Shown: piece by piece, positions 361-29,492 of the stretch
Position numbering within the stretch: the first letter of the stretch is position 1
How the letters are laid out: every line of letters starts with the position of its first letter
From: a virus
Taxonomy: Duplodnaviria > Heunggongvirae > Uroviricota > Caudoviricetes
Strand: one strand, 5' to 3'
Virus record (IMG/VR): IMGVR_UViG_2859799533_000006
Length of the DNA: 34,130 nt
The notes under the pieces: model-generated
The model's database searches: none
What the model was told of the DNA's origin: nothing
The model's input: the letters and a program-made list of their open reading frames with translations, nothing else
Made by a program: the position numbers and the translations under genes

Positions 361-780
361 ATGGAACAGAAAGCATTATCTGCAGAATCCCGCAGATCAT
401 TTTCAAATGAGTTTAAACTTCAAATGGTTAAACTGGCTTCACAACCAGGAGCCTCTGTTGCCCGTATTGCCCGGGAACACGATATCAATGATAACCTGCT
501 GTTCAAATGGCTCAGGCTCTGGCAGAACGAAGGGCGCATATCGCGGCGTCTTCCGGTAACAACCTCTTCTGACACTGGCGTTGAATTATTACCTGTGGAG
601 ATAACGCCGGATGAGCCGAAAGAACCGGTGGCTGCTCTTACTCCGTCTTTATCTACTCAGACTACAGTTAGTGCCAGCTCCTGCAAGGTGGAGTTCCGTC
701 ACGGTAACATGACGCTGGAAAATCCTTCACCAGAGCTGCTCACAGTGTTGATCCGTGAACTGACCGGGAGGGGACGATGA
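361..780 (+). CDS. IS66-family accessory protein TnpA (Orf1)
   Basis: 139-aa ORF with HTH-like segment ASQPGASVARIAREHDINDNLLFKWL; first gene of the IS66-type triad; overlaps next ORF by ATGA. Confidence 0.8.
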   Translation: MEQKALSAESRRSFSNEFKLQMVKLASQPGASVARIAREHDINDNLLFKWLRLWQNEGRISRRLPVTTSSDTGVELLPVEITPDEPKEPVAALTPSLSTQTTVSASSCKVEFRHGNMTLENPSPELLTVLIRELTGRGR

Positions 781-1127
781 TCTCACTCCCGTCAGGCACC
801 CGCATCTGGCTCGTTGCTGGGATAACCGATATGCGTAAGTCTTTCAACGGGCTGGGTGAACAGGTACAGCATGTGCTGAATGATAATCCCTTCTCCGGTC
901 ACCTGTTCATCTTCCGTGGCCGACGGGGTGACATGATTAAAATCCTGTGGGCTGATGCTGATGGTCTGTGCCTGTTCACCAGACGCCTGGAGGAAGGCCA
1001 GTTTATCTGGCCTGCTGTGCGTGACGGCAAGGTATCCATTACCCGCTAGCAACTGGCAATGCTCCTCGATAAGCTGGACTGGCGTCAGCCAAAAACATCC
1101 CGCCTTAACGCACTGACAATGTTGTAA
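777..1127 (+). pseudogene. IS66-family TnpB (Orf2) carrying an in-frame TAG at 1047..1049
   Basis: Frame from 777 reads ...GKVSITR-TAG-QLAMLLDKLDWRQPKTSRLNALTML-TAA; total about 116 codons, the usual TnpB length. Confidence 0.7.
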
Positions 1128-1157
1128 AAATGTCATGGCCGGATTATAAAAACGGCC

Positions 1158-2750
1158 ATGAATCAAAAATACCTCATTCGCATTGCAGAACTGGAATGCC
1201 AGCTCCGTCAGAAAGACCAGCAACTGAGTCTGGTTGAAGAGACGGAGGCCTTCCTGCGCTCTGCACTGGCCCGCGCCGAAGAAAAGATCGAAGAAGATGA
1301 ACGGGAAATAGAACATCTGCGGGCTCAGATAGAAAAACTGCGCCGGATGCTGTTCGGTACCCGTTCTGAAAAACTGCGTCGTGAAGTTGAACAGGCTGAG
1401 GCCCTGCTGAAACAACGCGAACAGGACAGTGATCGTTACAGTGGGCGGGAAGACGATCCGCAGGTTCCCCGCCAGTTGCGACAGTCTCGTCATCGTCGCC
1501 CGTTACCGGAGCATCTGCCCCGCGAAATAAATCGCCTGGAGCCAGAAGAAAGCTGTTGCCCGGAGTGTGGCGGTGAGCTGGATTATCTGGGGGAAGTCAG
1601 CGCAGAACAACTGGAACTGGTGAGCAGCGCTCTGAAAGTGATCCGCACAGAACGGGTAAAAAAAGCCTGTACAAAATGTGACTGCATCGTTGAAGCACCG
1701 GCACCATCCCGTCCGATAGAGCGTGGTATCGCGGGCCCGGGGTTACTTGCCCGCGTGTTAACGGGAAAATACTGCGAACACCTGCCACTGTATCGTCAGA
1801 GTGAAATTTTTGCCCGTCAGGGTGTCGAACTGAGCCGTGCATTACTCTCCAACTGGGTTGACGCGTGCTGCCAGTTAATGACGCCGCTGAATGATGCTCT
1901 GTACCGTTATGTGATGAACAGCCGCAAAGTTCACACTGATGACACACCAGTAAAAGTGCTGGCACCGGGCAGGAAGAAGGCGAAAACAGGATATATCTGG
2001 ACGTATGTCCGGGATGACAGGAATGCCGGTTCGCCAGAGCCTCCGGCGGTCTGGTTCGCCTACTCACCGGACCATCAGGGTAAACATCCGGAGCAGCACC
2101 TTAGTCCCTTCCGGGGTATCCTGCAGGCAGATGCGTTTAATGGTTACGATCGGCTGTTCAGTGCCGAACGAGAAGGCGGCGCGTTGACGGAAGCAGGATG
2201 CTGGGCTCATGCGCGGCGCAAAGTCCACGATGTATATATCAGTACCAAAAGCGCGACAGCGGAAGAAGCCCTGAAACTAATCGGTGAGCTGTACGCCATC
2301 GAGCACGAAATACGCGGGTTGCCGGTGTCTGAACGCCTGGCGGTCAGGCAAATGCAGAGTAAACCGCTACTGACTTCCCTGTATAAGCTGATGCAGGAGA
2401 AAGAACACACGTTATCGAAAAAATGCCGTCTGAGAGATGCGTTCCGGTATATCAGGAAGCACTGGGTTGCGTTGTGCAACTTCAGTGATGATGGTCTGGC
2501 TGAGGCGGATAATAATGCCGCGGAAAGAGCGCTTCGTGCAGTCTGTCTCGGAAAGAAAAACTTTATGTTCTTCGGCAGCGATCACGGTGGAGAGCGTGGT
2601 GCGCTACTGTACGGGCTGATCGGCACCTGCCGACTGAACGGTATCGATCCGGAAGCGTATCTGCGCTATATCCTGAGCGTACTGCCGGAATGGCCTTCCA
2701 ACCGTGTTGACGAACTCCTGCCATGGAACGTAGCACTCACCAATAAATAA
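1158..2750 (+). CDS. IS66-family transposase TnpC
   Basis: 530-aa ORF with N-terminal coiled-coil/leucine zipper, CPECGGEL and CTKCDC zinc-finger motifs and a C-terminal catalytic region, as in IS66-family transposases. Confidence 0.9.
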   Translation: MNQKYLIRIAELECQLRQKDQQLSLVEETEAFLRSALARAEEKIEEDEREIEHLRAQIEKLRRMLFGTRSEKLRREVEQAEALLKQREQDSDRYSGREDDPQVPRQLRQSRHRRPLPEHLPREINRLEPEESCCPECGGELDYLGEVSAEQLELVSSALKVIRTERVKKACTKCDCIVEAPAPSRPIERGIAGPGLLARVLTGKYCEHLPLYRQSEIFARQGVELSRALLSNWVDACCQLMTPLNDALYRYVMNSRKVHTDDTPVKVLAPGRKKAKTGYIWTYVRDDRNAGSPEPPAVWFAYSPDHQGKHPEQHLSPFRGILQADAFNGYDRLFSAEREGGALTEAGCWAHARRKVHDVYISTKSATAEEALKLIGELYAIEHEIRGLPVSERLAVRQMQSKPLLTSLYKLMQEKEHTLSKKCRLRDAFRYIRKHWVALCNFSDDGLAEADNNAAERALRAVCLGKKNFMFFGSDHGGERGALLYGLIGTCRLNGIDPEAYLRYILSVLPEWPSNRVDELLPWNVALTNK

Positions 2751-2840
2751 GCGTCAATACGGTGCTCCGTTGACGCTGATATGACTTTCCGTGTCAAACC
2801 GGAATCTCTAATTTTGACGATTTTCTTTTTAGGTTTAATT

Positions 2841-3023
2841 CCCTGAGGGCGACGTAGCAGTAAATCCGACGGTGAATCACGCTGATATTCGCGGGTTGGA
2901 TACCGCATTACAGAGGTCCGTCATATGAGCCTGCCACTTTCTTACGTCGCGAATCAGCTTTGTTCCGCCGTCGCCAAGCGCTAACGTGGGTTACTCTTGT
3001 ACCGGGCTACGTCGCCTTCAGGG
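2841..3023. repeat. 18-bp inverted repeat (17/18 match) closing a ~147-nt segment between IS66 tnpC and the IS110-family recombinase gene
   Basis: ccctgagggcgacgtagc (2841..2858) versus gctacgtcgccttcaggg (3006..3023); the single mismatch is a G-U pair if transcribed from the plus strand and a C-A mismatch from the minus strand. Confidence 0.7.
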
Positions 3024-3041
3024 AACTGGTTATTCTCATTT

Positions 3042-4169
3042 TTATTTGTGACATTGTGGTTGTTGTGCGACAGACATTGCTATTCGGCCCATATCCCAGA
3101 TAAAACCCGCCAGCTCACGTGCAACAGCAACAATTGTAATATTGACATTCTTTCCTTTGGCCTGAAGTTTTCGATACCTCTTACAAAGCCTGAGTTGAGC
3201 ATCCCATGCTCTGTCAATGACGGGGCGGGGTAAATTTTCCTGCCTTTTTTGTATTGCCGGACTGATGCGTGCCGGATGACGGTAACTCCACGCTGCCTCG
3301 ACCAATAGCTTTCTGGCATAGCTGTTTCCGGCTTTGGTAATGCTGCCCTGATGTCTGCTTCCACCCGATGAATATTCTGATGGCGTGATACCAAACCATG
3401 ACATCAGTTGTCGTGGATGTTCAAAACGGGTCAGATCACCCAGTTCAGAAATTAATCCAACCGCAGTAATAAACTGAATCCCTCGCATGGCTTGCAGCGC
3501 CTCTACTACCGGATACAGCCTCCATTCGGTAACGGCCTCCTTCAGGGCGGATTCCAGCCGTTCACATTGTGCCTGCCGGTCTTCTATTGTACGACGGTGT
3601 TCGTCAAAAGCTAATTGTCGCCAGGGACTTTCGAATGAGTATTTGCTGAGCCAGCGTCGGTGTGCAGGGCCCCAATCTGCTCGCCCGACATAATGGACCC
3701 CATGAACCAGAAGAAACGATTTCAGACGTTGCCTTGCATGCCGTAAATCATCGCGGGCAGATGCCCATGCCCGGGCCAAATCCCGGAATGCCTCATCTTC
3801 AATGCCGGGTACGTAGACAGCAGAAAGATCTCCTGCACGCAGTGAACGCACAAGTCTGATGGCATCACGGCGATCGGTTTTAACCCGCTCCCCCGGTTTT
3901 TTCGGGATAAGTGAGGGGGCGCAGACCATGCAGTCAAAACCGGATTTCACCAGCCGACGATAAAGTCCATAACCACAGGGCCCCGCTTCATAAACGATAC
4001 TGACCTGCGATGACTTTGACCTGAGACGTTTACAAAGATTCTGAATATCAGTAGGTGATGTGCCAATTTTACCCATCAGTTCAACAGGTTCTGAATTGAT
4101 AGCATAAGCGACAGTAATCGATTCTTTGTGAACATCTAACCCGACGTACAATGTGTTATTGTTGTTCAT
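3042..4169 (-). CDS. IS110-family transposase/recombinase
   Basis: 375 aa from MNNNNTLYVGLDVHKESITV (IS110-family N-terminal motif) with GGAGG 6 nt upstream of the ATG at 4169; the ORF track extends 16 codons further upstream to 4217. Confidence 0.85.
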   Translation of the reverse strand: MNNNNTLYVGLDVHKESITVAYAINSEPVELMGKIGTSPTDIQNLCKRLRSKSSQVSIVYEAGPCGYGLYRRLVKSGFDCMVCAPSLIPKKPGERVKTDRRDAIRLVRSLRAGDLSAVYVPGIEDEAFRDLARAWASARDDLRHARQRLKSFLLVHGVHYVGRADWGPAHRRWLSKYSFESPWRQLAFDEHRRTIEDRQAQCERLESALKEAVTEWRLYPVVEALQAMRGIQFITAVGLISELGDLTRFEHPRQLMSWFGITPSEYSSGGSRHQGSITKAGNSYARKLLVEAAWSYRHPARISPAIQKRQENLPRPVIDRAWDAQLRLCKRYRKLQAKGKNVNITIVAVARELAGFIWDMGRIAMSVAQQPQCHK

Positions 4170-4384
4170 GCTGGCCTCCGTGGTGGAAATACCGGGGTGT
4201 AGCAACAGCTCACCCATGCGGCTCTGACAACGATGTTAACCCGCGTTAAATATCCCACGTTGGCCAGCATCTGTCTCACGGAAAGTCATACTGCCTTACT
4301 ATCGTATTGATTGATCTGCATCAAATTAACGTAAAAGCAACTTCAGATAATACAAATCAGCAACACTGAATATGGGGAAACATT

Positions 4385-4585
4385 ATGTCATCAAAGAACA
4401 GAACCCGCAGAACAACAACCCGCAACATCCGATTTCCAAACCAGATGATTGAACAAATTAACATCGCTCTTGATCTGAAAGGTTCAGGAAACTTTTCAGC
4501 GTGGGTTATTGAAGCCTGCAGGAGAAGGCTGGCAACAGATGCAACGCATCTGCGCCCGGCCAGCATGACAAATAACGAGAAATGA
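4385..4585 (+). CDS. small hypothetical protein, possibly a YlcI-like prophage protein
   Basis: 66-aa ORF MSSKNRTRRTTTRNIRFPNQMIEQINIALDLKG...; family assignment from memory only. Confidence 0.35.
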   Translation: MSSKNRTRRTTTRNIRFPNQMIEQINIALDLKGSGNFSAWVIEACRRRLATDATHLRPASMTNNEK

Positions 4586-4716
4586 ACGTTCGGTTACAGG
4601 AGCAGGTACCCACTGTCCTCCAACAATATTTCATCTTCATATCCGACGGAACAAGACTTACCCTGCCGGGATGTACAGAATAACAACAGAGTGATAATTA
4701 ATTTCTGATGAAATAA

Positions 4717-5049
4717 TCAGGGTGCGGAAGGACTAAAGATAAACGTTTTCTTCACGCCTTTACACGGCCTGTCCTTCTCAAATCGCCATTTTGCCATCGC
4801 CTTTACAACCTGCTCATCAAACAGATGGTGCGGCTCTGAACGAATAAACTCAATTCGGGTGACAGTACCATCAGCACCAATATCAAACCTCACATCAACC
4901 CGTCCCTTTATATAATTTGCCGCTGCATAGGCCGGATATTGTGGTAATGCCTTAACCAACTGTCGGGGCATATCTGTTTTATGTTGCGTACAGCCCATAA
5001 CCAGAGAAGACAACAAAATAATTAACGGAAGGTTTCTTTTCATTTTCAT
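4717..5049 (-). CDS. lipoprotein with TonB C-terminal-like domain
   Basis: Signal peptide with lipobox (MKMKRNLPLIILLSSLVMGC) and the pattern PQYPAYAAANYIKGRVDVRFDIGADGTVTRIEFIRSEP...KAMAKWRF characteristic of TonB C-terminal domains. Confidence 0.6.
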   Translation of the reverse strand: MKMKRNLPLIILLSSLVMGCTQHKTDMPRQLVKALPQYPAYAAANYIKGRVDVRFDIGADGTVTRIEFIRSEPHHLFDEQVVKAMAKWRFEKDRPCKGVKKTFIFSPSAP

Positions 5050-5387
5050 TCCCGGCACAGATAAGAATAAGTCTTATTCTAACAATGCCACCCTGTCGGT
5101 CATCAATCCTCTGCTTAATGGCAACGACAATTATCCGACTTAAATCACAAATCAGACACATGACATAACAGAGCTTGCGAGGTAACACATCGTCCGGTTT
5201 CTTCCACCATCGCACCGGACCAGCGACCATGAGGGGACAACGCCGCGCTCCGTTAACGCGGTAAACCCCGGTGTGTATCGTTTTTGATTATCCCCGCACA
5301 CTCGCGCAGAGGAGTCTCCCGGTCGGGCTGCGGTCTCTGTTAATGCGGGGATACGGCGACAATACCGCGCATGGTTAATAAGGTCGC

Positions 5388-8407: not shown

Positions 8408-10273
8408 TTATGCGGCTGCTCCAGCTTTGTTTGCTTTAACTTCCACCGTATCAATAAGTACAGGGTAGGTTTCTGCACTACCTGTAATATCCGTAATGAC
8501 AAACCTGTTGAGTCCATTAGCAGTATTGGCCCATTTCACCAGGTCAAACGCCTGTCCATCCACACCATCAAGCACCGGAGTAACATTAATGCTGTTACTG
8601 CCCTTAAATTTAAATGCAAGCGTATGCCAGTCATGGTCGAATGCGCCAAACGTGCCAAGTTCTTTTTGTTGATTAACTGTATGATGGTATGCAACATTAA
8701 TACTGGCTTTATCTGTCTGGACAAAGAAAGAACTCAGATGGCCTTCACCACCCTCACCCGGCCATTCCGCTATTCGCCAGTACAAACCAAAGGCATACTT
8801 GTTTCTGGTTGTCTCAAGATTGACGTTTTCGGGGATTTTAAACCGGACAGCAATTTCCCCGCCTTTTTCCAGTAAAAGTTTTGCCTTGTCTGCAGCAATA
8901 TCACAGTACATTGACCAGGATTTCGCGCTGTTATTTTTCTCAATTCGCAGAGCTTTATTGCCGCTGTCATCAACCAGTGTGCGTCTGCCATACATACCGT
9001 CCCAGCCATAAGGTTTCAGCTGATTGTCTGTAGCTTTTTTGGCATCGTAAAAAATTACAGACTCTGAGGTGGTAACCGGCCTGTCTGGAACAACCACCCC
9101 GGCAGTACCATTAACAAACGCAGAAGACTTACCCGCGCAGCTCAGAATCGCCGTTGCCAGACGGTCGGAAATAATCCCACGGCGAGCCCATGAACTGAAA
9201 TGGCTCGCCCTGTCCTGTGACGTCCAGGTGGCTGAGCTGTCACGCCATTTCGAACCGTAATAACCGATACCCGGAATGTCCGGGTCTTCTTCCGGTTTGT
9301 TCGTCGGCACATTCACCCCGTTCTCATCGGTCATGAACGGTACGAAATGGATATTCTTTTCCGTTTTATTTTTATAGCTGCCGTACACCGTCTGGTACGT
9401 GGATTCGTTCTTCTGCTTCCAGAAATACGTCGTGTCCCCGCATATCCAGGGAACACCGCCAGCAGAGCCACCGACGCACTGGCCTGCCATATCCGCCAGG
9501 TCTGCACGGAATTTATCAACCAGCGCACCAAACTGTGCGGCATGATTTGCCGGCGTACCGCCAAAATCAAATTCCCCCTGCATCCACACCACGGCAAACA
9601 GCACATTTTTCGGGTTCTTCTCCAGTGCCGCTTTTGTTCGACCGATAAGGTCCTTATACAGCGGCTTGTCCACACCCCAGCGGGTTGAATTCTCCGAGGC
9701 ACCACTCGCGTCACTGTATGTGCCATCAGCTCCGGTGGTGAACGCTGAACCACCACGACAGCACGGAACCAGCAGAATGCCCGCATTCGCCGGTATAAAC
9801 GGCAGCAGTTTTTTGGCGATATGCAGCCCCTGCCCCACGGTTCCGTACTGCCCCTTTGACAGGTCCGCTTTCGGATGGTTAAGACGGCTCATGTCCTGCA
9901 CATCATGCAGACAATGGTCCGCCGGAATGATGTCGTTATATTTGCATGCTGCACCGCCCGGTGTCACCGTACTGCGACGCGCCAGTTGCTTAATACGCGG
10001 GTCCGGACGGTCATATGTCCCCGGCAGCGGAAGGCCTTCACCATACGACATGCCGTTTGACTGCCCTGCCAGAACCACAACAAAGTAATACTCCGGGTTG
10101 CTGGTGGCGCTGATTACTGCACCTTCTGCTGCAATCGCCTGCATCAGAGTATAAGGGGTTATGGCCACCGGACTACCAAACGGCTGCCAGCCCTCTTTCA
10201 GTTTATGTGTCAGCTTTTCCGCAAGATCTGACGGCGACGCCGCCCTGACAACATCATAGTGTTTAAATGCCAT
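8408..10273 (-). CDS. NanS-p-type sialate O-acetylesterase (prophage-encoded)
   Basis: About 620 aa starting MAFKHYDVVRAASPSDLAEKLTHKLKEGWQPFGSPVAI (DUF1737-like N-terminus) followed by an esterase-type domain (VVLAGQSNGMSYGEG); sits where NanS-p sits downstream of stx in Stx phages. Start could also be the upstream ATG at 10288. Confidence 0.8.
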   Translation of the reverse strand: MAFKHYDVVRAASPSDLAEKLTHKLKEGWQPFGSPVAITPYTLMQAIAAEGAVISATSNPEYYFVVVLAGQSNGMSYGEGLPLPGTYDRPDPRIKQLARRSTVTPGGAACKYNDIIPADHCLHDVQDMSRLNHPKADLSKGQYGTVGQGLHIAKKLLPFIPANAGILLVPCCRGGSAFTTGADGTYSDASGASENSTRWGVDKPLYKDLIGRTKAALEKNPKNVLFAVVWMQGEFDFGGTPANHAAQFGALVDKFRADLADMAGQCVGGSAGGVPWICGDTTYFWKQKNESTYQTVYGSYKNKTEKNIHFVPFMTDENGVNVPTNKPEEDPDIPGIGYYGSKWRDSSATWTSQDRASHFSSWARRGIISDRLATAILSCAGKSSAFVNGTAGVVVPDRPVTTSESVIFYDAKKATDNQLKPYGWDGMYGRRTLVDDSGNKALRIEKNNSAKSWSMYCDIAADKAKLLLEKGGEIAVRFKIPENVNLETTRNKYAFGLYWRIAEWPGEGGEGHLSSFFVQTDKASINVAYHHTVNQQKELGTFGAFDHDWHTLAFKFKGSNSINVTPVLDGVDGQAFDLVKWANTANGLNRFVITDITGSAETYPVLIDTVEVKANKAGAAA

Positions 10274-10533
10274 GGTTCTTTCCACCATCTGAAAAATGAT
10301 TCTTTAAAATACCTGACATGTAATACAGAAAAAACACAAAACCATACCTTAAATAAAAACCTCATCATCAAGCAGATATGCATGGATAAACTACAAGACG
10401 AGATATAAACCACCCTGCATTTAAATAAACAATAAACAACATCAGAAAAATAATTCTGCTCTATGGTTTACATTCAAAAATATCATTTATACTTTTCAGA
10501 ACATCACCAGCAATGCATAAACAAGGAAACCAA

Positions 10534-10869
10534 ATGAAGTGGATTGTGATTGATACAGTTATCCAGCCATCATGCGGAATATCTTTTTCAGTCATATGGA
10601 GTAAAATAAAATTAATAATCTGGTATCAATCGGATGCTTTCTTACCTCCTGAAAGTATATTTACACTGACTCACACAGGCATCATGCTCAATAACAAAGT
10701 GCTACCTGTAACCATTTACAACGTAGTACCATTCAATAAAACATTCTGGAATTTAATCAAAAACAGCCAGGAATGCCCTACAAATACAGATAACGTATTG
10801 AATGAATGCTTTAATAACCGTTGCACTCTGCAAATATGTCCTTATGGGCTAAAACAACAAAGTCCATAA
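10534..10869 (+). CDS. hypothetical protein in AT-rich cargo slot (stx-equivalent position), opposite strand to the late operon
   Basis: [25 protein letters not shown]... with AAGGA 7 nt upstream; very AT-rich context; several Cys near the C-terminus. Confidence 0.35.
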
Positions 10870-10903
10870 GGAGTTTACTCACATCTGACAAAATCAATAT
10901 AAA

Positions 10904-10925
10904 CAGCCCCTCCGGAGAGGGGCTG
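10904..10925 (-). terminator. rho-independent terminator (minus-strand transcripts)
   Basis: 9-bp GC-rich stem cagcccctc/gaggggctg with loop cgga; on the minus strand it is followed by a U-rich tract. Confidence 0.5.
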
Positions 10926-11158
10926 GAGAGTGGCGCTATGTGCCATTGCATGGTGCCGGGTGCCTCCCGGTGAATTCAGTACCAGCACCTGAATCTGCGA
11001 TTATCCCATATACCTACTCGCTGATTGCCCCTCCGCACAGGGGGATTCACCATGCCAGTTTCTTTTAACAAACTCCCCGCAAACCAGACAACAGTCAACC
11101 GCCTGAATTGTGAGACATTTAAAAAAAAGCCCGCAAAAGCGAGCCAGGGAAAATAAGT

Positions 11159-11235
11159 GTGGCGCGTTCTACTGTATTCGAACCAGTGACCGATTGCTTA
11201 GAAGGCAATTGCTCTGTCCGGCTGAGCTAACAACG
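11159..11235 (-). tRNA. argN: tRNA-Arg (anticodon UCU)
   Basis: Reverse complement gives a cloverleaf with anticodon loop CCTTCTAAG, T-loop TTCGAAT and CCA end; one acceptor-stem and one T-stem mismatch. Confidence 0.6.
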
Positions 11236-11251
11236 CAGGATACAGATAATG

Positions 11252-11326
11252 AACCGCCTTCGGGGACCCGAACTCCGCGCAACCAGCTTCGAAGGCTGGC
11301 GCTCTTTCCTGATGAGCTAATGGCGG
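11252..11326 (-). tRNA. tRNA-Arg-like (anticodon UCG), somewhat degenerate
   Basis: Hand-folded cloverleaf: D-arm gctc/gagc, anticodon stem ccagc/gctgg with loop CTTCGAA, T-loop TTCGGGT; acceptor 6/7 and T-stem 4/5 pairs; A58 replaced by G. Confidence 0.4.
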
Positions 11327-11333
11327 TATGTGA

Positions 11334-11409
11334 TGGTGGCCCTTGCTGGATTTGAACCAGCGACCTGGCGATTATGAGTCGCTCGCTCTCACCACTGAGC
11401 TAAAGGGCC
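11334..11409 (-). tRNA. ileZ: tRNA-Ile2 (anticodon CAU, ileZ-like)
   Basis: Reverse complement GGCCCTTTAGCTCAGTGGTGAGAGCGAGCGACTCATAATCGC...GGTTCAAATCCAGCAAGGGCCACCA closely resembles E. coli tRNA-Ile2; anticodon CAT. Confidence 0.8.
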
Positions 11410-11458
11410 GGGAGCAGAATAATAATGGTGCGTAATTAATTCTGCAATCTCATCCGTT

Positions 11459-12508
11459 TCAAACGATTAAATCCTGAACTTCCCTGACTGTCTGCTCAAA
11501 ACGTCCGGTCTCCAGTTCAACGCCAATCGCACGACGCCCGAGCGCCAGTGCCGCTTTTACCGTTGAACCTGAGCCCATAAAAAAATCTGCAACCTGGTCT
11601 CCCGGACGACTGCTCGCGTTGATTATCTGCTGCAACATTTCTGCCGGTTTTTCGCACGGATGTTTCCCTGGATAGTACTGCACCGGTTTATACGTCCACA
11701 CATCGGTGTACGGCACCTGCACCGTCACACCGAAATACCTCCGCAAATTTTTATATTCACTCAGCAGTTCCATATACTGCCGGCTCAGCTCACTGTATGT
11801 GCTGACCAGTTGGTAATGGGACTTTTCCAGTTCTCTCCGCTGATGTTTCTCTTCTGCCACCCGGGCAAACAGCGACTGTAATTTCAGATAATCGCTTTCG
11901 TTCGGTAGCTGCCACTGACTGGCACTGAACCAGTGCGACACCATGTTTTTCTTTCCTGTGGCATCTGCAATCTGTTTTGCCGTTATCCCCAGGGCAGCTC
12001 GCGCATCACGAAAGTAAGCAATCAGCGGGGCCATCACATTCTGTTTCAGTACCCTGCCCTTCGCCTCATAGCCATCATCTTTCGGGCGGTACGGCCCCTG
12101 ATAATGTTCCGCGAACAGAATGCGCTCTGTGGCGGGGAAATACGCCCGCAGGCTTTCCTTGTTGCATCCGTTCCAGCGTCCGGACGGCTTCGCTCAGATA
12201 ATATGGTTCAGCACACTGAAGCGTTCACGCATCATGATTTCGATATCAGATGCCAGGCGATGACCACAGAACAGGTAAAGACTTCCGGCAGGTTTCAGCA
12301 CCCGCCAGAACTGCGCCAGACACTGCTCCAGCCACTTCAGGTAATCATCGTCGCCCTTCCACTGGTTATCCCAGCCCTCAGGCTTCACTTTAAAGTACGG
12401 CGGGTCCGTGACTATCAGGTCAACAGAATTTTCGGGTAACGACCGGATAAATTCCAGGCAGTCGGCGTTGATTAACTCACAACTGGATATTTTTACAGTA
12501 TTAAGCAT
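11459..12508 (-). pseudogene. phage DNA N6-adenine methyltransferase (DPPY motif) interrupted by an in-frame TGA at 12194..12196
   Basis: N-terminal ORF has LIVTDPPYF; reading continues in the same frame across TGA (...SVLNHII-TGA-AKPSGRWNG...KQNVMAPLIAYFRD...), about 350 codons in total. Confidence 0.8.
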
Positions 12509-12978: not shown

Positions 12979-12999
12979 AAAAAAACCGCCAGGCGGCGG
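12979..12999 (-). terminator. rho-independent terminator about 85 nt downstream of Q (tR'-like)
   Basis: Minus-strand hairpin ccgcc-gcct-ggcgg followed by T7; this position downstream of Q is where lambdoid tR' lies. Confidence 0.5.
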
Positions 13000-13082
13000 G
13001 GTGTAAAAAATCTTCTAACGTCAGGCATAAAACGCCCATCATTAGAGCAAATTTACCACAGATTCGGGAAAAATCAACAACA

Positions 13083-13556
13083 CTATCGCGTTACCCTCTT
13101 TAACTGCCGCTCCGCCCATGCCTCTTCAATGTCAAACCGAACCACCAACGTATCGTAAAAGCGTTTCACTGATTTTTTCCACGTATCAAGCGTGATAGCA
13201 CTCGTCACTTTGCATATGGCATTAAATGCCTCCGTTGATGGTAGTCTTTCACAGCCACGACCACCACAACGCTGGCAGTCTCTGATAACAGGCATACCAC
13301 GTTTTACCGACTCTTCACGATGAATGGCGACACCACGCCCACGGCAATCCTTACAGGCGGTGGAAACCTCACCCTTTCCGCCACACTCCGGACAGGCAAC
13401 TTTTACCACCTCCCTGACTTTTTTCCATTCTTCCCAGTAAGACGGATACACGCCTTTTGTGCACTTTGCCCACACTGGTGGCTTACCATCCGGATACTGG
13501 ATCTTGTTTGTAAAAACCTCGCTTTCAATAAATTTTTTCCGTGACAGCAGGGGCAC
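13083..13556 (-). CDS. Q: late-gene antiterminator Q (zinc-finger part); has only a GTG start and is probably the 3' part of a frameshifted longer Q gene
   Basis: CPECGGKG...CKDCRGRG zinc-finger motifs; sits upstream of tR' and the tRNA trio; no ATG start, and overlaps the upstream ORF by 154 nt. Confidence 0.6.
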   Translation of the reverse strand: MPLLSRKKFIESEVFTNKIQYPDGKPPVWAKCTKGVYPSYWEEWKKVREVVKVACPECGGKGEVSTACKDCRGRGVAIHREESVKRGMPVIRDCQRCGGRGCERLPSTEAFNAICKVTSAITLDTWKKSVKRFYDTLVVRFDIEEAWAERQLKRVTR

Positions 13557-20116: not shown

Positions 20117-20280
20117 AGTGACATCCTCATGTGCGAATTTTGAAAACTCACCACATGGGACGCCAATCACAGAGGTGGTGAGACGTACAGGGTTGGCGTA
20201 ACCGGTCGCACATGACCCCGGCGCATCTTTCGATGCCCCTGCACGCCCCACCATAATTTGGATGTGAGGAAACGTGCGCA

Positions 20281-20303
20281 AAAAAACCGCTGAAGCGCGG
20301 TTA
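20281..20303 (-). terminator. putative rho-independent terminator upstream of rha (minus strand)
   Basis: Minus-strand hairpin aaccgcg...cgcggtt followed by T7. Confidence 0.45.
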
Positions 20304-20521
20304 TGCGCATGTGCGAATTTCAGGACGCCAATCCCGGCACCCGCTTTATAAGGTGCGGAGACAGTGTAACGTCCCGAAATTGCAGAATCAATATTTGGTC
20401 TTGAAATGATCATATAGCTGCTGATATCTTTAGAACTGTTCTTGGATGTTTCGGAGCCGTTTTATGCGAAACAGCTCCCCGTTATTGATGTTGAGTGAGC
20501 CGGGTTACTCCCGGCTTTTTT

Positions 20522-23321: not shown

Positions 23322-23448
23322 CAACAAATATGCCCTGAACGTTTATTGCGGTTTTATCGCCGGGGATTGTTACAACCTTAATCCGCAGGAGGCTTTATTG
23401 TGACTTTTATAAAGAATATGGCATCACACAAGACCGCTGGATTTGCCC

Positions 23449-23798: not shown

Positions 23799-24689
23799 TC
23801 AGGCTGCCAGATCATCGTTTCCGATGGAAGCATAATAAGCTTTTTCTGCTTCTGCCGGAGGAGTATGGCCCAGCCTTTCCAGCAATCGTCGATTGTTATA
23901 CCAGTCCACCCACGTGAGTGTGGCCAGTTCCACTTCTGCACGGTTTTTCCAGCTCTTACGGTGTATTACCTCCGCTTTGTAAAGACCATTGATGCTCTCC
24001 GCCATCGCGTTGTCATACGAGTCGCCTGTACTTCCTGTTGATGCCAGTAATCCGGCTTCCTTAAGCCGCTGTGTGTAGGCCAGCGATACATACTGAGAAC
24101 CTTTATCACTGTGATGGACCGTGCCGGACGGTCGACGGGCCCATAACGCCTGCTCCAGAGCATCCAGCACGAATGTCGTTTCCATGGACGATGAGACCCG
24201 CCACCCCACGATGTATCCGGCAAACACATCAATGATGAACGCCACATAGACGAAGCCCTGCCATGTGCTGACGTAAGTAAAATCAGCCACCCACAGCTGG
24301 TCAGGTCGTTCTGCCACGAACTGACGGTTTACGCGGTCGCCTGCGGCAACGGCTTTCCGGCTGATGGTCGTACGGACCTTTTTACCCCGGAGAACACCGG
24401 CAAGTCCCATAACCGCCATGAGACGTGCCACAGTGCATCTGGCCACTCTGATACCTTCCCGTAACAACTGACGCCAGACTTTACGCACACCGTATACCTG
24501 ATGATTCCCATCGTATACGCGCAGTATCTCTTTCTTCAGCCAGTCATCGCGCTGCGCACGGGCACTGCGTTTATCAGGATGATGTCGCTGTTGCTGACAG
24601 TGGTAATACGTTGACGGGGCAATATGCAGTTCACTGCATACCGGTCCGACCCCGTACAGCTTACGCAGCTTATCCAGCAGTGGCATCAC
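23799..24689 (-). CDS. IS629 transposase OrfB (DDE integrase domain)
   Basis: 296-aa ORF with the IS3-family catalytic region; overlaps orfA in the arrangement for a -1 frameshift fusion. Confidence 0.9.
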
Positions 24690-25012
24690 TTTTTCCAGAG
24701 GCGGTCGAACTCCGCCTTCGCAAAATAAGCGGAAGCCTGGCGAAGGATATCGTTACTGCGGCGCAGTTCACGATTTTCACGCTCCAGCTCTTTCAGACGC
24801 TGACGTTCAGCGGTGGTGAGCCCTCCATCACCGCCCCCGGTATCCCGCTCATGCTGGCGAACCCAGACACGCAGAGTCTCCGGCGTACAGCCAATCTTTG
24901 GAGCAATGGAACAAATTGTCGCCCATTGTGAGTCATATTCGCCCTGACTTTCCAGAACCATACGGACTGCCCGTTGACGGACTTCGGGGGAAAAACGAGT
25001 ATTTTTAGTCAT
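24686..25012 (-). CDS. IS629 transposase OrfA
   Basis: 108-aa HTH/leucine-zipper protein [22 protein letters not shown]... Confidence 0.9.
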
Positions 25013-25066
25013 CCTGTTTACCTCTTTCTCAGGAAGTTTAGTCTCCAGGATTCCCGGGGCGGTTCA

Positions 25067-25667
25067 AACCATTATCCGTCAGCCACTCCACTGGAGACGA
25101 CGGAAGATCGTTGCCGAAGCGGCGTTCCACCGCTCCCAGCATGACGTCCTGTACTGTTTCACTGTTGAAGCCGCCGGTAGTCACCGCCCAGTGCAGTGCC
25201 TCACGATCACAGCAGTCCAGCGCGAACGTGACACGCAGTCTCTCTCCGTTATCACAGCAGAACTCGAACCCGTCAGAGCACCATCGCTGATTGCTTTCTT
25301 TCACGGCCACTCTGCCTGTATGTGCCCGTTTCGATGGCGGTACAGCAGGTTTTCGCTCAAGCAACAGCGCATTCTGGCGCATGATCCGGTAAACACGTTT
25401 GGCATTGATCGCAGGCATACCATCAAGTTCTGCCTGTCTGCGAAGCAGCGCCCATACCCGACGATAACCATACGTGGGCAGCTCTCCGATAACATGGTGT
25501 ATACGGAGAAGCACATCCGTATCATCAGTGTGACGACTGCGGCGGCCATCCATCCAGTCATCGGTTCGTCTGAGAATGACGTGCAACTGCGCACGCGACA
25601 CCCGGAGACAACGGCTGACTAAGCTTACTCCCCATCCCCGGGCAATAAGGGCGCGTGCGCTATCCAC
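25067..25667 (-). pseudogene. insD: IS2 transposase InsD, 5' fragment
   Basis: ORF 25038..25667 ([21 protein letters not shown]...) runs into the IS629 end at 25066. Confidence 0.85.
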
Positions 25668-25990
25668 TTTTTTGCCCGTCCATATTCAACGGCTTCTTTG
25701 AGGAGTTCATTTTCCATCGTTTTCTTGCCGAGCAGGCGCTGGAGTTCTTTAATCTGCTTCATAGCGGCAGCAAGTTCAGAGGCAGGAACAACCTGTTCTC
25801 CGGCGGCCACAGCAGTAAGACTTCCTTCCTGGTATTGCTTACGCCAGAGAAATAACTGGCTGGCTGCTACACCATGTTGCCGGGCAACGAGGGAGACCGT
25901 CATCCCCGGTTCAAAGCTCTGCTGAACAATTGCGATCTTTTCCTGTGTGGTACGCCGTCTGCGTTTCTCCGGCCCTAAGACATCAATCAT
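25625..25990 (-). CDS. insC: IS2 transposase InsC (OrfA)
   Basis: [56 protein letters not shown]... (121 aa). Confidence 0.9.
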
Positions 25991-26164
25991 CTGTACTCCA
26001 ATGACTAGTCTAAAAACTAGTATTAAGACTATCACTTATTTAAGTGATACTGGTTGTCTGGAGATTCAGGGGGCCAGTCTAACCGCCTGCCTTATTGCAC
26101 AATACGGTGAAAATTACATGCATATTGCCTGCTTATTTCTGCGTAAAGCATACGGGAGATAATA

Positions 26165-26365
26165 ATGCATCAGAAAACAGCAGAACACGAACAAACCAGA
26201 ATATTGCTGACCATCAAAAACGGGAAAGTAATATTCATTCGCCATGTTCATGACGATGAACTTGTAGGAACTCTTTCAACATTCCTGTTTATTGCAGAAA
26301 AGGCAGGATATGACGTTATTGCACCAGCAGATGAAGATGAAGATGAAGATGAAGATGAGGAATAA
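26165..26365 (+). CDS. small protein with poly-acidic C-terminal tail
   Basis: MHQKTAEHEQTRILLTIKNGKVIFIRHVHDDELVGTLSTFLFIAEKAGYDVIAPADEDEDEDEDEE; the tail is encoded by a (GATGAA)n repeat. Confidence 0.45.
   Translation: MHQKTAEHEQTRILLTIKNGKVIFIRHVHDDELVGTLSTFLFIAEKAGYDVIAPADEDEDEDEDEE
26330..26362 (+). repeat. hexanucleotide tandem repeat (GATGAA)x4 plus GATGAG-GAA
   Basis: Read directly from the sequence at the 3' end of ORF 26165..26365. Confidence 0.9.
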
Positions 26366-26370
26366 ATATC

Positions 26371-26967
26371 ATGCAATACGATGAATTCCAGGCTGAAGCA
26401 ACAGCCAATGGTATACGAACTGGCAGTATGACGATTGATTATCACGACGCCATACGTCGTCTGGATGCCGGAGAATTCGATACTCCTAATGTGCGAGGTT
26501 TACGTATCCTTCAGTGTCTGGCGCAAGCCGACGAAGCAGGATTACTGGGTAAACTTCCGGTTGAGATGAAGGTTGCTCAGTGGCGATGGTTGTATGTGAC
26601 GACATTCATCAACGAAGAAGAAGACAAGAACGGCACAATTGATATCCTGAATGAACACGGAACAACTGAACACGGAACAACTGAACACGCCGTGGTATAT
26701 AACGGGATGTATGGGTTTATGACGATATATCCCGGCCCCATTCGATTTGCCTTACAACAGTATATTGAATGGAATTTAATTCAAAAATACGGCGAAGCTG
26801 AAGGAATGGGAAGAGCGCTGTTTCTTTATCAGAAAATGCTCACTACTTCCCCTGATAAAGGTTTCATTCTTTCAGATATGGGTCGAGAAGGGCTTGAAAT
26901 CCTTCTGGATGAAATTATTAACGAAATGAATACTCATGGCATGCAATCCGAAACAGATATTAAGTAA
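26371..26967 (+). CDS. hypothetical early-left-operon protein with internal EHGTT repeat
   Basis: 198-aa ORF starting 5 nt after the previous stop; contains a 15-bp tandem repeat encoding EHGTTEHGTTEH. Confidence 0.55.
   Translation: MQYDEFQAEATANGIRTGSMTIDYHDAIRRLDAGEFDTPNVRGLRILQCLAQADEAGLLGKLPVEMKVAQWRWLYVTTFINEEEDKNGTIDILNEHGTTEHGTTEHAVVYNGMYGFMTIYPGPIRFALQQYIEWNLIQKYGEAEGMGRALFLYQKMLTTSPDKGFILSDMGREGLEILLDEIINEMNTHGMQSETDIK
26653..26689 (+). repeat. 15-bp tandem repeat gaacacggaacaact, about 2.5 copies
   Basis: Copies at 26653..26667 and 26668..26682, partial at 26683..26689. Confidence 0.9.
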
Positions 26968-26977
26968 AAGGGACCAC

Positions 26978-27226
26978 ATGACCGTTATCGAGTATATCCA
27001 GGAAAATCCAGATTGCAGTAGAGAAGATATATCCCTCGCACTTGGAAGAAGCGCAACTTCTATCAGTAATAAATTATCACGGTTATTGTGGAATGGGTTA
27101 ATAGTACGAACTGGAGAAAAAAACAAAATGATTCTGTACTGCGTAAACAATCTGCCGTTTGGATACAGCAATCCCCTAAGTGTTATGTTCAACCAGTTAC
27201 TTAAACAGGTAAGAAATGGCAACTGA
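26978..27226 (+). CDS. small putative winged-helix DNA-binding protein
   Basis: MTVIEYIQENPDCSREDISLALGRSATSISNKLSRLLWNGLIVRTGEKNKMILY...; start chosen at the internal Met of ORF 26936..27226. Confidence 0.45.
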   Translation: MTVIEYIQENPDCSREDISLALGRSATSISNKLSRLLWNGLIVRTGEKNKMILYCVNNLPFGYSNPLSVMFNQLLKQVRNGN

Positions 27227-27533
27227 CTCACAACTAACCATAGAAACGGCCCTGAATGTCGGCCTGGCGCTCCTTGGTTATTTTTACATCGTGTTCTGCA
27301 GCGGACGGTGGCTGTCGCTGTTGTTCCTGAAAAAATGGAATAAACGCCGTAAGCAGGATGAACGCCAGAAGGCAATGAATGCGTTTTCCGAAGCCTTCGG
27401 AATTGACGGCATGGAACCAGGGGATCCAGCTCGCGCAATCAGCAGAGGGGGTGTAGTAATCCTTGTATATCGGAGTGAAGAGAAAAATGACGATCACAAA
27501 ACAACGAGTAGAAAAAATCATATATCGCCATGA
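27216..27533 (+). CDS. small membrane protein
   Basis: N-terminal TM helix LNVGLALLGYFYIVFCSGRWLSLLFL followed by a basic stretch. Confidence 0.4.
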   Translation: MATDSQLTIETALNVGLALLGYFYIVFCSGRWLSLLFLKKWNKRRKQDERQKAMNAFSEAFGIDGMEPGDPARAISRGGVVILVYRSEEKNDDHKTTSRKNHISP

Positions 27534-27801
27534 AATGGGACTGAACAGCGATGTCACTGCCGAAGAGGTTTATGACCTGGCTGTACTGGCGCTGAATTTA
27601 TCAAATATCGCAAACCTGAAGCGATACGAGCTTGATATGGATGGTTGCGACTCGTGCGGTCAGGATTGTGGCGCAGATATGACTGAAGATCCTGATGGTG
27701 ATTATGTCCTGTTTGATGACGTGGTTAAGTTGTTTGAATTTGATACAACCACTCAAAAGTTAGAAATCCCGGCAAAGGAGGCTGCCAGTGAGCAAGATTG
27801 A
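27487..27801 (+). CDS. hypothetical acidic protein with CxxC motif
   Basis: MTITKQRVEKIIYRHEMGLNSDV...DGCDSCGQDCGADMTEDPDGDYVLFDD. Confidence 0.45.
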   Translation: MTITKQRVEKIIYRHEMGLNSDVTAEEVYDLAVLALNLSNIANLKRYELDMDGCDSCGQDCGADMTEDPDGDYVLFDDVVKLFEFDTTTQKLEIPAKEAASEQD

Positions 27802-28242
27802 CTATCAGGCACTGCGCGAGGCGGCGGAACAGGCAACGCAAGATGAATGGGTAGCATATATTTTGCCGGGTCATAACGGCATTTATCCTGCGCGCACGTC
27901 TGAGGGTAGGCATTGCGGATACTTTATTGACTGGCCTGGCGTCTGTCAGGGGCGGGAGAGCATCAGCATCAGAACCTACGCAGTGAATTGCAATGACGCA
28001 TGGCTAAACACCGAAGGTGATGACATCTCCGGCTCATACGTTAAGTACAAAGACCATCAGGAAGTGGTTGCCGCTCTTGAAGCCAAGTGCGCGGCGCTGG
28101 CAGCGGAGAATGCGGGAATAAAGTCTGCAATTCCAGAATCACGGGATATTGAGGATGACAATGACAATATGGATGACGTATCTCTCGCGGAAGACTTCGG
28201 GTTCAATCATGCAATAGAACGGATGAGGAGACAGATTGAACC
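27788..28242 (+). pseudogene. Ead/Ea22-like protein, C-terminus disrupted by IS629 insertion two codons before the native stop
   Basis: MSKIDYQALREAAEQATQDEWVAY... is the Ead/Ea22-like N-terminal signature; reading across the 3-bp target duplication gives ...RMRRQID-T-stop. Confidence 0.65.
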
Positions 28243-28278
28243 GCCCCGGGTTTCCTGGAGAGTGTTTTATCTGTGAAC

Positions 28279-29169
28279 TCAGGCTGCCAGATCATCGTTT
28301 CCGATGGAAGCATAATAAGCTTTTTCTGCTTCTGCCGGAGGAGTATGGCCCAGCCTTTCCAGCAATCGTCGATTGTTATACCAGTCCACCCACGTGAGTG
28401 TGGCCAGTTCCACTTCTGCACAGTTTTTCCAGCTCTTACGGTGTATTACCTCCGCTTTGTAAAGACCATTGATGCTCTCCGCCATCGCGTTGTCATACGA
28501 GTCGCCTGTACTTCCTGTTGATGCCAGTAATCCGGCTTCCTTAAGCCGCTGTGTGTAGGCCAGCGATACATACTGAGAACCTTTATCACTGTGATGGACC
28601 GTGCCGGACGGTCGACGGGCCCATAACGCCTGCTCCAGAGCATCCAGCACGAATGTCGTTTCCATGGACGATGAGACCCGCCACCCCACGATGTATCCGG
28701 CAAACACATCAATGATGAACGCCACATAGACGAAGCCCTGCCATGTGCTGACGTAAGTAAAATCAGCCACCCACAGCTGGTCAGGTCGTTCTGCCACGAA
28801 CTGACGGTTTACGCGGTCGCCTGCGGCAACGGCTTTCCGGCTGATGGTCGTACGGACCTTTTTACCCCGGAGAACACCGGCAAGTCCCATAACCGCCATG
28901 AGACGTGCCACAGTGCATCTGGCCACTCTGATACCTTCCCGTAACAACTGACGCCAGACTTTACGCACACCGTATACCTGATGATTCCCATCGTATACGC
29001 GCAGTATCTCTTTCTTCAGCCAGTCATCGCGCTGCGCACGGGCACTGCGTTTATCAGGATGATGTCGCTGTTGCTGACAGTGGTAATACGTTGACGGGGC
29101 AATATGCAGTTCACTGCATACCGGTCCGACCCCGTACAGCTTACGCAGCTTATCCAGCAGTGGCATCAC
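28279..29169 (-). CDS. IS629 transposase OrfB
   Basis: Identical to the copy 1 OrfB except one residue (Cys for Arg in SWKNCAEVE). Confidence 0.9.
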
Positions 29170-29492
29170 TTTTTCCAGAGGCGGTCGAACTCCGCCTTCG
29201 CAAAATAAGCGGAAGCCTGGCGAAGGATATCGTTACTGCGGCGCAGTTCACGATTTTCACGCTCCAGCTCTTTCAGACGCTGACGTTCAGCGGTGGTGAG
29301 CCCTCCATCACCGCCCCCGGTATCCCGCTCATGCTGGCGAACCCAGACACGCAGAGTCTCCGGCGTACAGCCAATCTTTGGAGCAATGGAACAAATTGTC
29401 GCCCATTGTGAGTCATATTCGCCCTGACTTTCCAGAACCATACGGACTGCCCGTTGACGGACTTCGGGGGAAAAACGAGTATTTTTAGTCAT
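29166..29492 (-). CDS. IS629 transposase OrfA
   Basis: Identical to copy 1 OrfA. Confidence 0.9.

Follow-up and report, generated by a model that had tools for sequence, protein, structure and literature searches.

In Shiga toxin (Stx) prophages, the interval between the late tRNA genes and the NanS-p esterase gene carries stxAB, and the question raised here is what such an interval holds, and where it holds it, when the toxin genes are absent. We examined a stretch of 34,130 nucleotides of viral DNA (Caudoviricetes; IMG/VR record IMGVR_UViG_2859799533_000006), which is referred to below as the window. An initial annotation, made from the sequence alone, described the order Q, methylase, three tRNAs, cargo, NanS-p, and lysis genes; Pfam and ARAGORN recover this order as described, with the genes that surround the cargo all on the minus strand. 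It also proposed that a Stx-equivalent slot contains AT-rich DNA with a plus-strand open reading frame (ORF) that encodes Cys residues and has its own ribosome binding site. This ORF is present, and on the basis of its sequence it is iraL, a known gene in its usual prophage context. The explanation that we favor, with high confidence, is that iraL is a lysogeny-expressed moron that encodes an anti-adaptor of RssB and is carried by a decaying lambdoid prophage within its late region.

The plus-strand ORF is identified as iraL

The ORF encodes 111 residues plus a stop codon, rather than the 112 residues first reported. The protein contains five Cys residues, and an AAGGA Shine-Dalgarno sequence (10523..10527) lies 6 nt ahead of the ATG; an in-frame ATG at 10513 extends the listed ORF to 118 residues. 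The window protein is identical at 111/111 residues to IraL of strain CFT073 (WP_000871291.1; RefSeq locus C_RS06710), and the nucleotide alignment of the two coding sequences shows one synonymous difference. The CFT073 gene is c1429, formerly ycgW, which is iraL (Hryckowian et al., 2014, PMC4045071; the locus name is from PMC12890032). In that study, genes were assigned to the iraL or iraM group by identity of at least 95% over the coding region, and the window gene is at least 95% identical to CFT073 iraL over its whole coding region. The ORF, which had been taken for uncharacterized cargo, is thus a gene that was published in 2014.

Profile and structure-database searches, which had been suggested as a check, confirm that the protein has homologues. 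The NCBIfam model NF007393 (“anti-adapter protein IraM”) matches with 162 bits, against a curated cut-off of 121 bits, and residues 1-110 align to profile positions 1-113 of 114. A phmmer search of the PDB matches residues 1-78 to 8twd_A, the crystallized fragment of IraM (E = 9.1e-32), which is a match at the level of sequence only. A Pfam scan of the ORF returned no family, as only NCBIfam has a model for it. Compared with IraM of K-12, the window protein has 62% amino acid identity and the gene has 71% nucleotide identity, confined to the coding sequence; the published identity of IraL to IraM is 58.9% (PMC4045071). Every copy of iraL is named “anti-adapter protein IraM” in RefSeq by PGAP, and this label is correct at the level of the family but is not exact.

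The function of IraL has been established elsewhere. Deletion of iraL lowers log-phase sigma-S in CFT073 and in Shigella sonnei, sigma-S has a half-life of approximately 5 min in the wild type versus approximately 2.5 min in an iraL mutant, iraL expressed from its native promoter raises sigma-S in K-12, and IraL binds only to RssB's N-terminal domain (PMC4045071). In the structure of IraM with RssB, IraM covers the alpha4-beta5-alpha5 face of the RssB receiver that sigma-S requires; the residues of cluster I (I4, I6, W22, K26, and I42) contact RssB's N-terminal domain, and clusters II and III contact its C-terminal domain and linker (PMC10844676). All five residues of cluster I are conserved in the window protein, while three of the five in cluster II (T13S and L75I being substituted) and two of the four in cluster III (H63N and I64V) are identical. 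The retention of cluster I and the partial substitution of clusters II and III are consistent with IraL binding to the N-terminal domain only.

In CFT073, iraL is transcribed in exponential growth from its own sigma-70-type promoter. IraL binds to the adaptor RssB at its N-terminal receiver domain, and RssB blocked in this way does not deliver RpoS (sigma-S) to ClpXP; the half-life of RpoS in log phase approximately doubles, and the general stress response rises. In the mechanism that we propose, iraL of the window would act likewise and would be expressed in the lysogen from the late region of the decaying prophage. The window gene would be transcribed antisense to the Q-dependent late operon and toward a small RNA (sRNA) gene of the STnc100 family. 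Its module stands in place of the ~230-bp segment of Stx phages that runs from the STnc100 terminator to nanS-p, and the stxAB site is unoccupied.

One part of the protein has no counterpart in the crystallized fragment. Residues 80..107 of IraL (window 10771..10854) contain Cys residues C81, C92, C97, and C102 together with an ICPYGL motif, and this C-terminal Cys4 and ICPYGL tail is common to IraL, IraM, and a Citrobacter homologue that is 54% identical. The C-terminal tail of IraM was removed for the crystal structure (PMC10844676). Judged from its sequence, the Cys4 tail may be an element that is stabilized by a metal or by disulfides.

Table 1. Coordinates of the features of the iraL locus and of its surroundings in the window
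Feature	Position	Strand	Details and basis
iraL coding sequence	10534..10869	plus	111 residues + stop; RssB anti-adaptor, IraM/IraL family
iraL module	10274..10903	plus	630 bp, 33% GC; stretch not shared with Stx and other lambdoid phages
Putative sigma-70 promoter of iraL	10467..10493	plus	-35 TTTACA 10467..10472; 15-nt spacer; -10 TATACT 10488..10493
Predicted iraL transcription start (10501) and 33-nt 5' untranslated region	10501..10533	plus	5'-RACE match; Shine-Dalgarno 10523..10527
STnc100-family sRNA gene	10895..11084	minus	Rfam RF02076; convergent with iraL
STnc100 intrinsic terminator hairpin	10904..10925	minus	9-bp stem, 7 GC pairs, T-rich tail; terminator scan, minus only
Empty junction, stxAB insertion point of Stx2 phage 933W	11117..11127		Flank alignments
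Intrinsic terminator after tRNA genes	11128..11145	minus	7-bp stem then T7 run; terminator scan
Phage tRNA cluster, ileZ-argN-argO type (Ile2/Met, Arg, Arg)	11160..11409	minus	Anticodons CAT, TCG, TCT; ARAGORN and Rfam tRNA
N6/N4 DNA methylase gene	12508..11459	minus	PF01555; between Q and tRNAs
Q antiterminator gene	13556..13083	minus	Pfam Antiterm PF03589
NanS-p-type sialate O-acetylesterase gene	8408..10273	minus	Pfam DUF1737, SASA, and DUF6645; left border of slot

Promoter and leader of iraL

The hexamers of the putative iraL promoter (Table 1) were read from the sequence; their distance to the transcription start mapped by homology is as expected, and an alignment shows that the -35/-10 stretch is identical to that of CFT073. 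A generic promoter scan did not report this promoter, because its spacer is 15 nt. In 7 of 71 iraL loci, the -35 hexamer is TTTATA, a variant that fits the remark in PMC4045071 on a -35 point mutation in JJ1886 iraL2.

The 5' end of the CFT073 iraL mRNA was determined by rapid amplification of cDNA ends (5'-RACE), which gave the 32-nt sequence ACATCACCAGCAAGGCATAAACAAGGAAACCA (PMC4045071). This sequence maps to window 10501..10532 with 31/32 bases matching. The single mismatch is a T for G at 10514 (+14), the minority allele at this position (5/65 loci), and it creates the in-frame ATG at 10513, which lies only 12 nt from the transcription start and is not preceded by a Shine-Dalgarno sequence. 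A CFT073 iraL fragment extending from -100 to +33 was enough for complementation (PMC4045071), and over this interval the window differs from CFT073 at two positions only (-1, A for G; +14, T for G). The promoter and leader are thus at least 96% identical to those of CFT073 and have the mapped start within them, as is characteristic of iraL. By homology, transcription of the window gene would start at 10501 and translation at the ATG at 10534. We infer that iraL in the window is true cargo, a moron that is transcribed independently.

Two cargo sites between the tRNAs and the esterase gene

The start of the esterase gene at 10273 agrees with both the RefSeq coding sequence and the start of the 933W coding sequence (a further upstream ATG lies at 10288), and the intergenic interval therefore runs from 10274 to 11159. 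Similarity to phages 933W and PPwrbA and to an Stx1 phage ends at 10274, at the nanS-p start, and restarts at 10905, at the STnc100 hairpin. Between these points, the 630-bp iraL module stands in place of ~206-232 bp in the three phages, a short segment that contains an antisense-oriented terminator and, in 933W, AsxR too. The initial annotation had described ~870 bp of AT-rich DNA. This holds for the left 620 bp (10274..10894), which have a GC content of 33%, but not for 10895..11158, where it is 51.5%; that of the whole window is 50%. A search for direct or inverted repeats flanking the iraL module as an insertion signature found only short matches at chance level.

The position of the toxin genes could be located by alignment. 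In 933W, the order is tRNAs, terminator, stx2A/stx2B, STnc100 (3778..3983), AsxR on the opposite strand (3985..4037), and nanS-p (from 4190); the 1.3-kb stx2AB cassette (2410..3744) has the tRNA terminator on one side and STnc100 on the other. Its two flanks can be matched to the window, 933W 2409..1970 aligning with 11122..11560 and 933W 3835..3745 with 11027..11117, which places the insertion point of the cassette between window positions 11117 and 11127. At this point the tRNA terminator directly abuts the 5' flank of STnc100. That terminator aligns with 933W 2386..2409, which is annotated “terminator upstream of the stx genes,” and it ends the tRNA operon. Elsewhere, the stx site contains ~35 extra nt (PPwrbA) or a ~640-bp insert with a DUF3927 ORF (CFT073); among the 70 iraL-bearing viral contigs with a tRNA flank, it is empty in 18 and contains a ~660-690-bp insert in 49. 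The absence of an Stx-like ORF, as first noted, is borne out: with Stx1A, Stx2A, and Stx2B as tblastn queries, no match anywhere in the window was better than E = 1.2.

The comparison across 933W, PPwrbA, the Stx1 phage, and CFT073 thus resolves two separate cargo sites in the tRNA-to-esterase interval, divided by an STnc100-family sRNA gene. Site 1, the site of stxAB, is codirectional with the late operon; site 2, the site of iraL, is antisense and has the position that AsxR has in Stx2a phages. An stx-type moron follows the tRNA terminator (or pR'-tR') and precedes STnc100, whereas iraL lies 3' of STnc100. A Q-driven moron is codirectional with the late genes, whereas iraL is on the plus strand, opposite to the minus-strand genes for Q, the tRNAs, nanS-p, and lysis. 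The notion of a Stx-equivalent slot is therefore correct for the interval as a whole, but the insertion site and the strand differ.

The STnc100-family sRNA gene converges on iraL

The minus-strand sRNA gene was missed in the initial annotation. It matches Rfam RF02076 with 126.9 bits (gathering score 47) over the full model, positions 1-206 of 206, and the hairpin at its end is the terminal helix of the Rfam STnc100 model. RNAs of this family correspond to the Hfq-binding sRNAs EcOnc27/EcOnc42, which are encoded directly 3' of stx2B/stx1B in enterohemorrhagic E. coli (EHEC) (PMC12711010, PMC7547250), and they are related to PasD, located just upstream of an esterase gene (bioRxiv 10.64898/2026.05.13.724894). 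In 933W and in the Stx1 phage (AP005153), we likewise find the family immediately on the 3' side of stx2B and stx1B, respectively. Tandem arrays of two to four STnc100-family genes lie between the tRNAs/stx site and nanS-p in some prophages (E. albertii stretch 4362..5019 and three IMG/VR stretches). In RefSeq, a “hypothetical protein” pseudo-coding sequence is placed over the STnc100 region; it is most likely spurious. Two small plus-strand ORFs (10940..11068 and 11025..11156) were considered as genes and rejected, as they have no family matches and overlap STnc100 on the opposite strand.

The terminator hairpin noted initially exists, but its T-tract is on the minus strand and it belongs to the STnc100 sRNA. 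It lies 35 nt beyond the iraL stop codon, and the plus-strand letters that follow it are GGAGAGTGGCGC / GGAGAGTGG, with no U-tract; read on the plus strand, it is possibly a weak stop for iraL.

The distance from the iraL stop codon to the 3' end of STnc100 is 25 nt in 80/80 loci. It is conceivable, although we think it unlikely, that iraL and the convergent STnc100 gene form one fixed regulatory unit in which, upon induction, Q-antiterminated antisense transcription (and possibly read-through from iraL into the sRNA gene) would switch off the stabilization of RpoS. If this were true, the tuning of the host stress response would be coupled to the lysogenic state. Pairing of STnc100 with the 5' untranslated region and start region of iraL was also considered and rejected: the duplex energy is no better than that of mononucleotide shuffles (z = +0.7; 231/300 were equal or better).

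Distribution of the iraL module

Of 5426 complete E. coli genomes, 1446 carry the iraL module, mostly with at least 95% identity and, in 1428, with at least 80% coverage. Up to three copies occur per genome, and nearly all are chromosomal. The module is also present in 253 IMG/VR stretches, and all of the 80 that are listed encode an identical (100%) protein; four deposited phage records carry the module. Species-representative genomes yielded only seven loci, in Escherichia (including E. albertii, which has the iraL module), Shigella, and one Citrobacter, and this set is not diverse enough to support conclusions on evolution. In one of these genomes, that of the E. coli-like strain ECGI0523, iraM is frameshifted (stretch 4001..4160), and in one S. 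flexneri genome it is duplicated. The copy number and integrity of the IraM/IraL family vary between lineages.

We took a census of the two sites in a convenience sample of 80 STnc100-bearing viral stretches. Site 2 contained iraL in 24 and an AsxR-type segment in 15; otherwise it had the short form or extra tandem copies of STnc100. The longer classes of site 2 (763 and 1188 nt) were candidates for new cargo and proved to have only such extra copies inside. In three of the 80, stx was upstream of STnc100, and iraL was in none of those three. Never in the sampled loci did stx and iraL occur on one element, and in STEC388, the genome of a Stx-producing E. coli that carries iraL, no stx is adjacent to iraL.

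Weighing the alternative explanations

Three other explanations of the ORF can be set against these results. The gene might be IraM of the K-12 type, which is controlled by PhoP/PhoQ, is induced by Mg2+ starvation, and clamps both domains of RssB; the PGAP name of every copy, the single NCBIfam match (to the IraM subfamily model), and the alignment of the N-terminal 78 residues with the IraM crystal chain would all fit. We regard this as extremely unlikely. The identity to K-12 iraM, only 62% for the protein and 71% for the gene, does not extend outside the coding sequence, and no STnc100 gene lies beside K-12 iraM. At the level of at least 95% identity, iraL and iraM form two nonoverlapping groups, and they differ in their promoters, their induction, and their interaction with RssB (PMC4045071). 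The window promoter, inspected by eye, appears to have a single GGTTTA half-site and no PhoP direct repeat. Orthologues of K-12 iraM are recognized by at least 95% identity together with a PhoP-regulated upstream region, and the window gene falls outside this definition. If, instead, the interval were a scar left by the loss of stxAB, the ORF would be a chance or decaying frame without function. The prophage is indeed degraded (IS66, IS110, and IS3-family elements are present, the last in two copies; left of Rz there are neither head nor tail genes; and the methylase gene has a premature stop), and the stx site itself is empty. However, the empty junction is seamless and is common to 18/70 of the iraL-bearing contigs with a tRNA flank, tblastn detects no remnants of Stx in the window, the protein is invariant in 80/80 of the listed viral contigs and is present in approximately one quarter of E. 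coli genomes, and the ORF belongs to a curated family that has a solved structure and a function established by published genetic and biochemical work. A simple deletion scar, which the initial annotation had named as a possible refutation of cargo, is thus not what the slot contains; this explanation is effectively refuted already, and we give it almost no credence.

It is also very unlikely, in our judgment, that the protein serves the phage besides or instead of acting on RssB, for example by binding another response regulator, as PmrD does PmrA, or by tuning the choice between lysis and lysogeny. The fold of IraM resembles only that of PmrD among PDB entries (PMC10844676), iraL has a fixed position beside regulatory sRNAs of the phage (in all 80 loci, STnc100 is 25 nt away), and the Cys4 and ICPYGL tail that is conserved in IraL, IraM, and the Citrobacter homologue has no assigned role. 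However, the demonstrated interaction with RssB and effect on RpoS suffice to explain retention. Moreover, iraL persists in remnants that are incapable of lytic growth, in both the window and CFT073, and its survival there therefore argues for a benefit at the level of the host.

Several observations weigh against the explanation that we prefer, in which the ORF is iraL and acts as a lysogeny-expressed anti-adaptor of RssB. Expression of the window copy, its binding to RssB, and its stabilization of RpoS would follow from those of CFT073 and S. sonnei by virtue of identity. The leader contains the alleles T at +14, with its extra in-frame ATG at 10513, and A at -1. The hairpin behind the gene has no plus-strand U-tract, so it does not define the end of the iraL transcript. 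Finally, the insertion sequence (IS) elements and the premature stop in the methylase gene show that the prophage is degraded, so iraL may be silenced.

The gene iraL, its function, and its wide distribution have already been published, and the feature is not new. IraL raises RpoS in growing cells, and a role in niche adaptation has been proposed in uropathogenic E. coli and Shigella (PMC4045071); the window copy would be a functional host-fitness gene that rides on a prophage remnant. Our additions are modest and consist of descriptive anatomy: the two cargo sites, the empty stx site, and the likeness of iraL to AsxR in position and direction. Our literature search found no paper that states the two cargo sites, the empty stx site, or the equivalence of iraL and AsxR. 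The analysis of the slot opens no new question.

The prophage that carries iraL

On its minus strand, the window contains the part of a lambdoid prophage that is concerned with late regulation and lysis, and the lysis genes include those for a P21-type holin, a lysozyme, and Rz. The tRNA region is 89.6% identical to that of 933W. In the methylase gene, codon 104 is followed by a premature stop in frame, and an intact orthologue of 350 residues, used as a tblastn query, gives one high-scoring segment pair that is 93% identical and spans the stop; the gene is probably a pseudogene.

No head or tail genes were found left of Rz; where they would be expected, left of the lysis genes, there are IS66-family genes (361..2750) and an IS110-family transposase gene (4217..3042). 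An IS3-family element is present in two copies within 23799..29211, with ALIL frameshift pseudoknots at 24615..24731 and 29095..29211, and the match to the best E. coli prophages stops near 23437. The host prophage is Shigella- or EHEC-like, decayed, and riddled with IS elements, and iraL is intact within it.

Other features of the window are unrelated to the slot. On the minus strand of the early region, a C4 antisense RNA (Rfam, 75 bits) and isrK (62 bits) are adjacent at 20171..20356, which suggests an antirepressor-immunity RNA module of the P1/P7 or Gifsy type. Directly downstream of Q (12980..13040, minus strand), a GC-rich hairpin, CCCCGCCGCCTGGCGG, is followed by a T-run and has no match in Rfam; it looks like a pR'-tR' unit, which would give a short StxS/6S-like RNA in the lysogen. 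Downstream of Rz, an ORF of 113 residues (4717..5058, minus strand) encodes a TonB C-terminal domain (TIGR01352, 55 bits), which is an unusual accessory gene at that position.

Comparison with known systems

The closest relative of the window locus is that of CFT073, which has the same IraL protein (100%) and a nearly identical promoter and 5' untranslated region; the 5' end mapped by RACE is present in the window. Both loci contain the tRNAs Ile-Arg-Arg, STnc100, an antisense iraL gene, nanS-p, and a holin gene, and the CFT073 copy lies on a prophage or genomic island inserted at potB. The two differ in that nanS-p is full-length in the window and truncated in CFT073, the interval from Q to the tRNAs contains the methylase gene in the window and an IS200 element in CFT073, and CFT073, but not the window, has the ~640-bp DUF3927 insert that separates the tRNAs from STnc100.

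IraM of K-12 (b1160; 8TWD) belongs to the same family and length class and, at 62% identity, shares the five N-terminal-domain contacts and the Cys4/ICPYGLK tail. Its gene is flanked by e14/icdC, with no STnc100, tRNA, or nanS-p nearby, and its flanks have no similarity to the window; for these reasons we rejected the idea that K-12 iraM is a relic of the same slot. Regulation also differs, in that iraM responds to Mg2+ starvation and iraL is expressed in log phase, as does the contact with RssB, which involves both domains for IraM and the N-terminal domain only for IraL (PMC4045071, PMC10844676).

The stxAB moron of 933W and of the Stx1 phage (AP005153) is accessory cargo of the same Q-to-lysis interval on the same backbone, and iraL lies less than ~250 bp from the stx point. 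Around the two cargoes, the tRNAs, terminator, STnc100, and nanS-p show homology, but the cargo sequences are unrelated; stxAB is 5' of STnc100, on the strand of the late operon, and Q dependent, whereas iraL is 3' of STnc100, antisense, and has its own promoter. The nearer positional counterpart is AsxR of Stx2a phages (Rfam RF02703), which, like iraL, lies between the STnc100 terminator and the start of nanS-p, is antisense, and converges with STnc100. AsxR, however, is a noncoding RNA of 53 nt that does not resemble the iraL module in sequence, and an Rfam search of the window gave no AsxR match at E <= 1.

The remaining parallel is with StxS, an sRNA of Stx phages that, like IraL, is a late-region, lysogeny-expressed product of lambdoid phages that raises RpoS (PMC7547250). 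StxS, encoded at pR'-tR' just after Q, is an RNA whose base pairing activates the translation of rpoS, whereas IraL is a protein that blocks proteolysis of RpoS, and the link between them is conceptual only. In a broader form of the regulatory-unit idea, which we likewise think unlikely, the stx site and a few hundred base pairs on either side would be a hot spot for host-directed regulators in lambdoid prophages, and these would include two independent boosters of RpoS, the StxS sRNA and the IraL protein.

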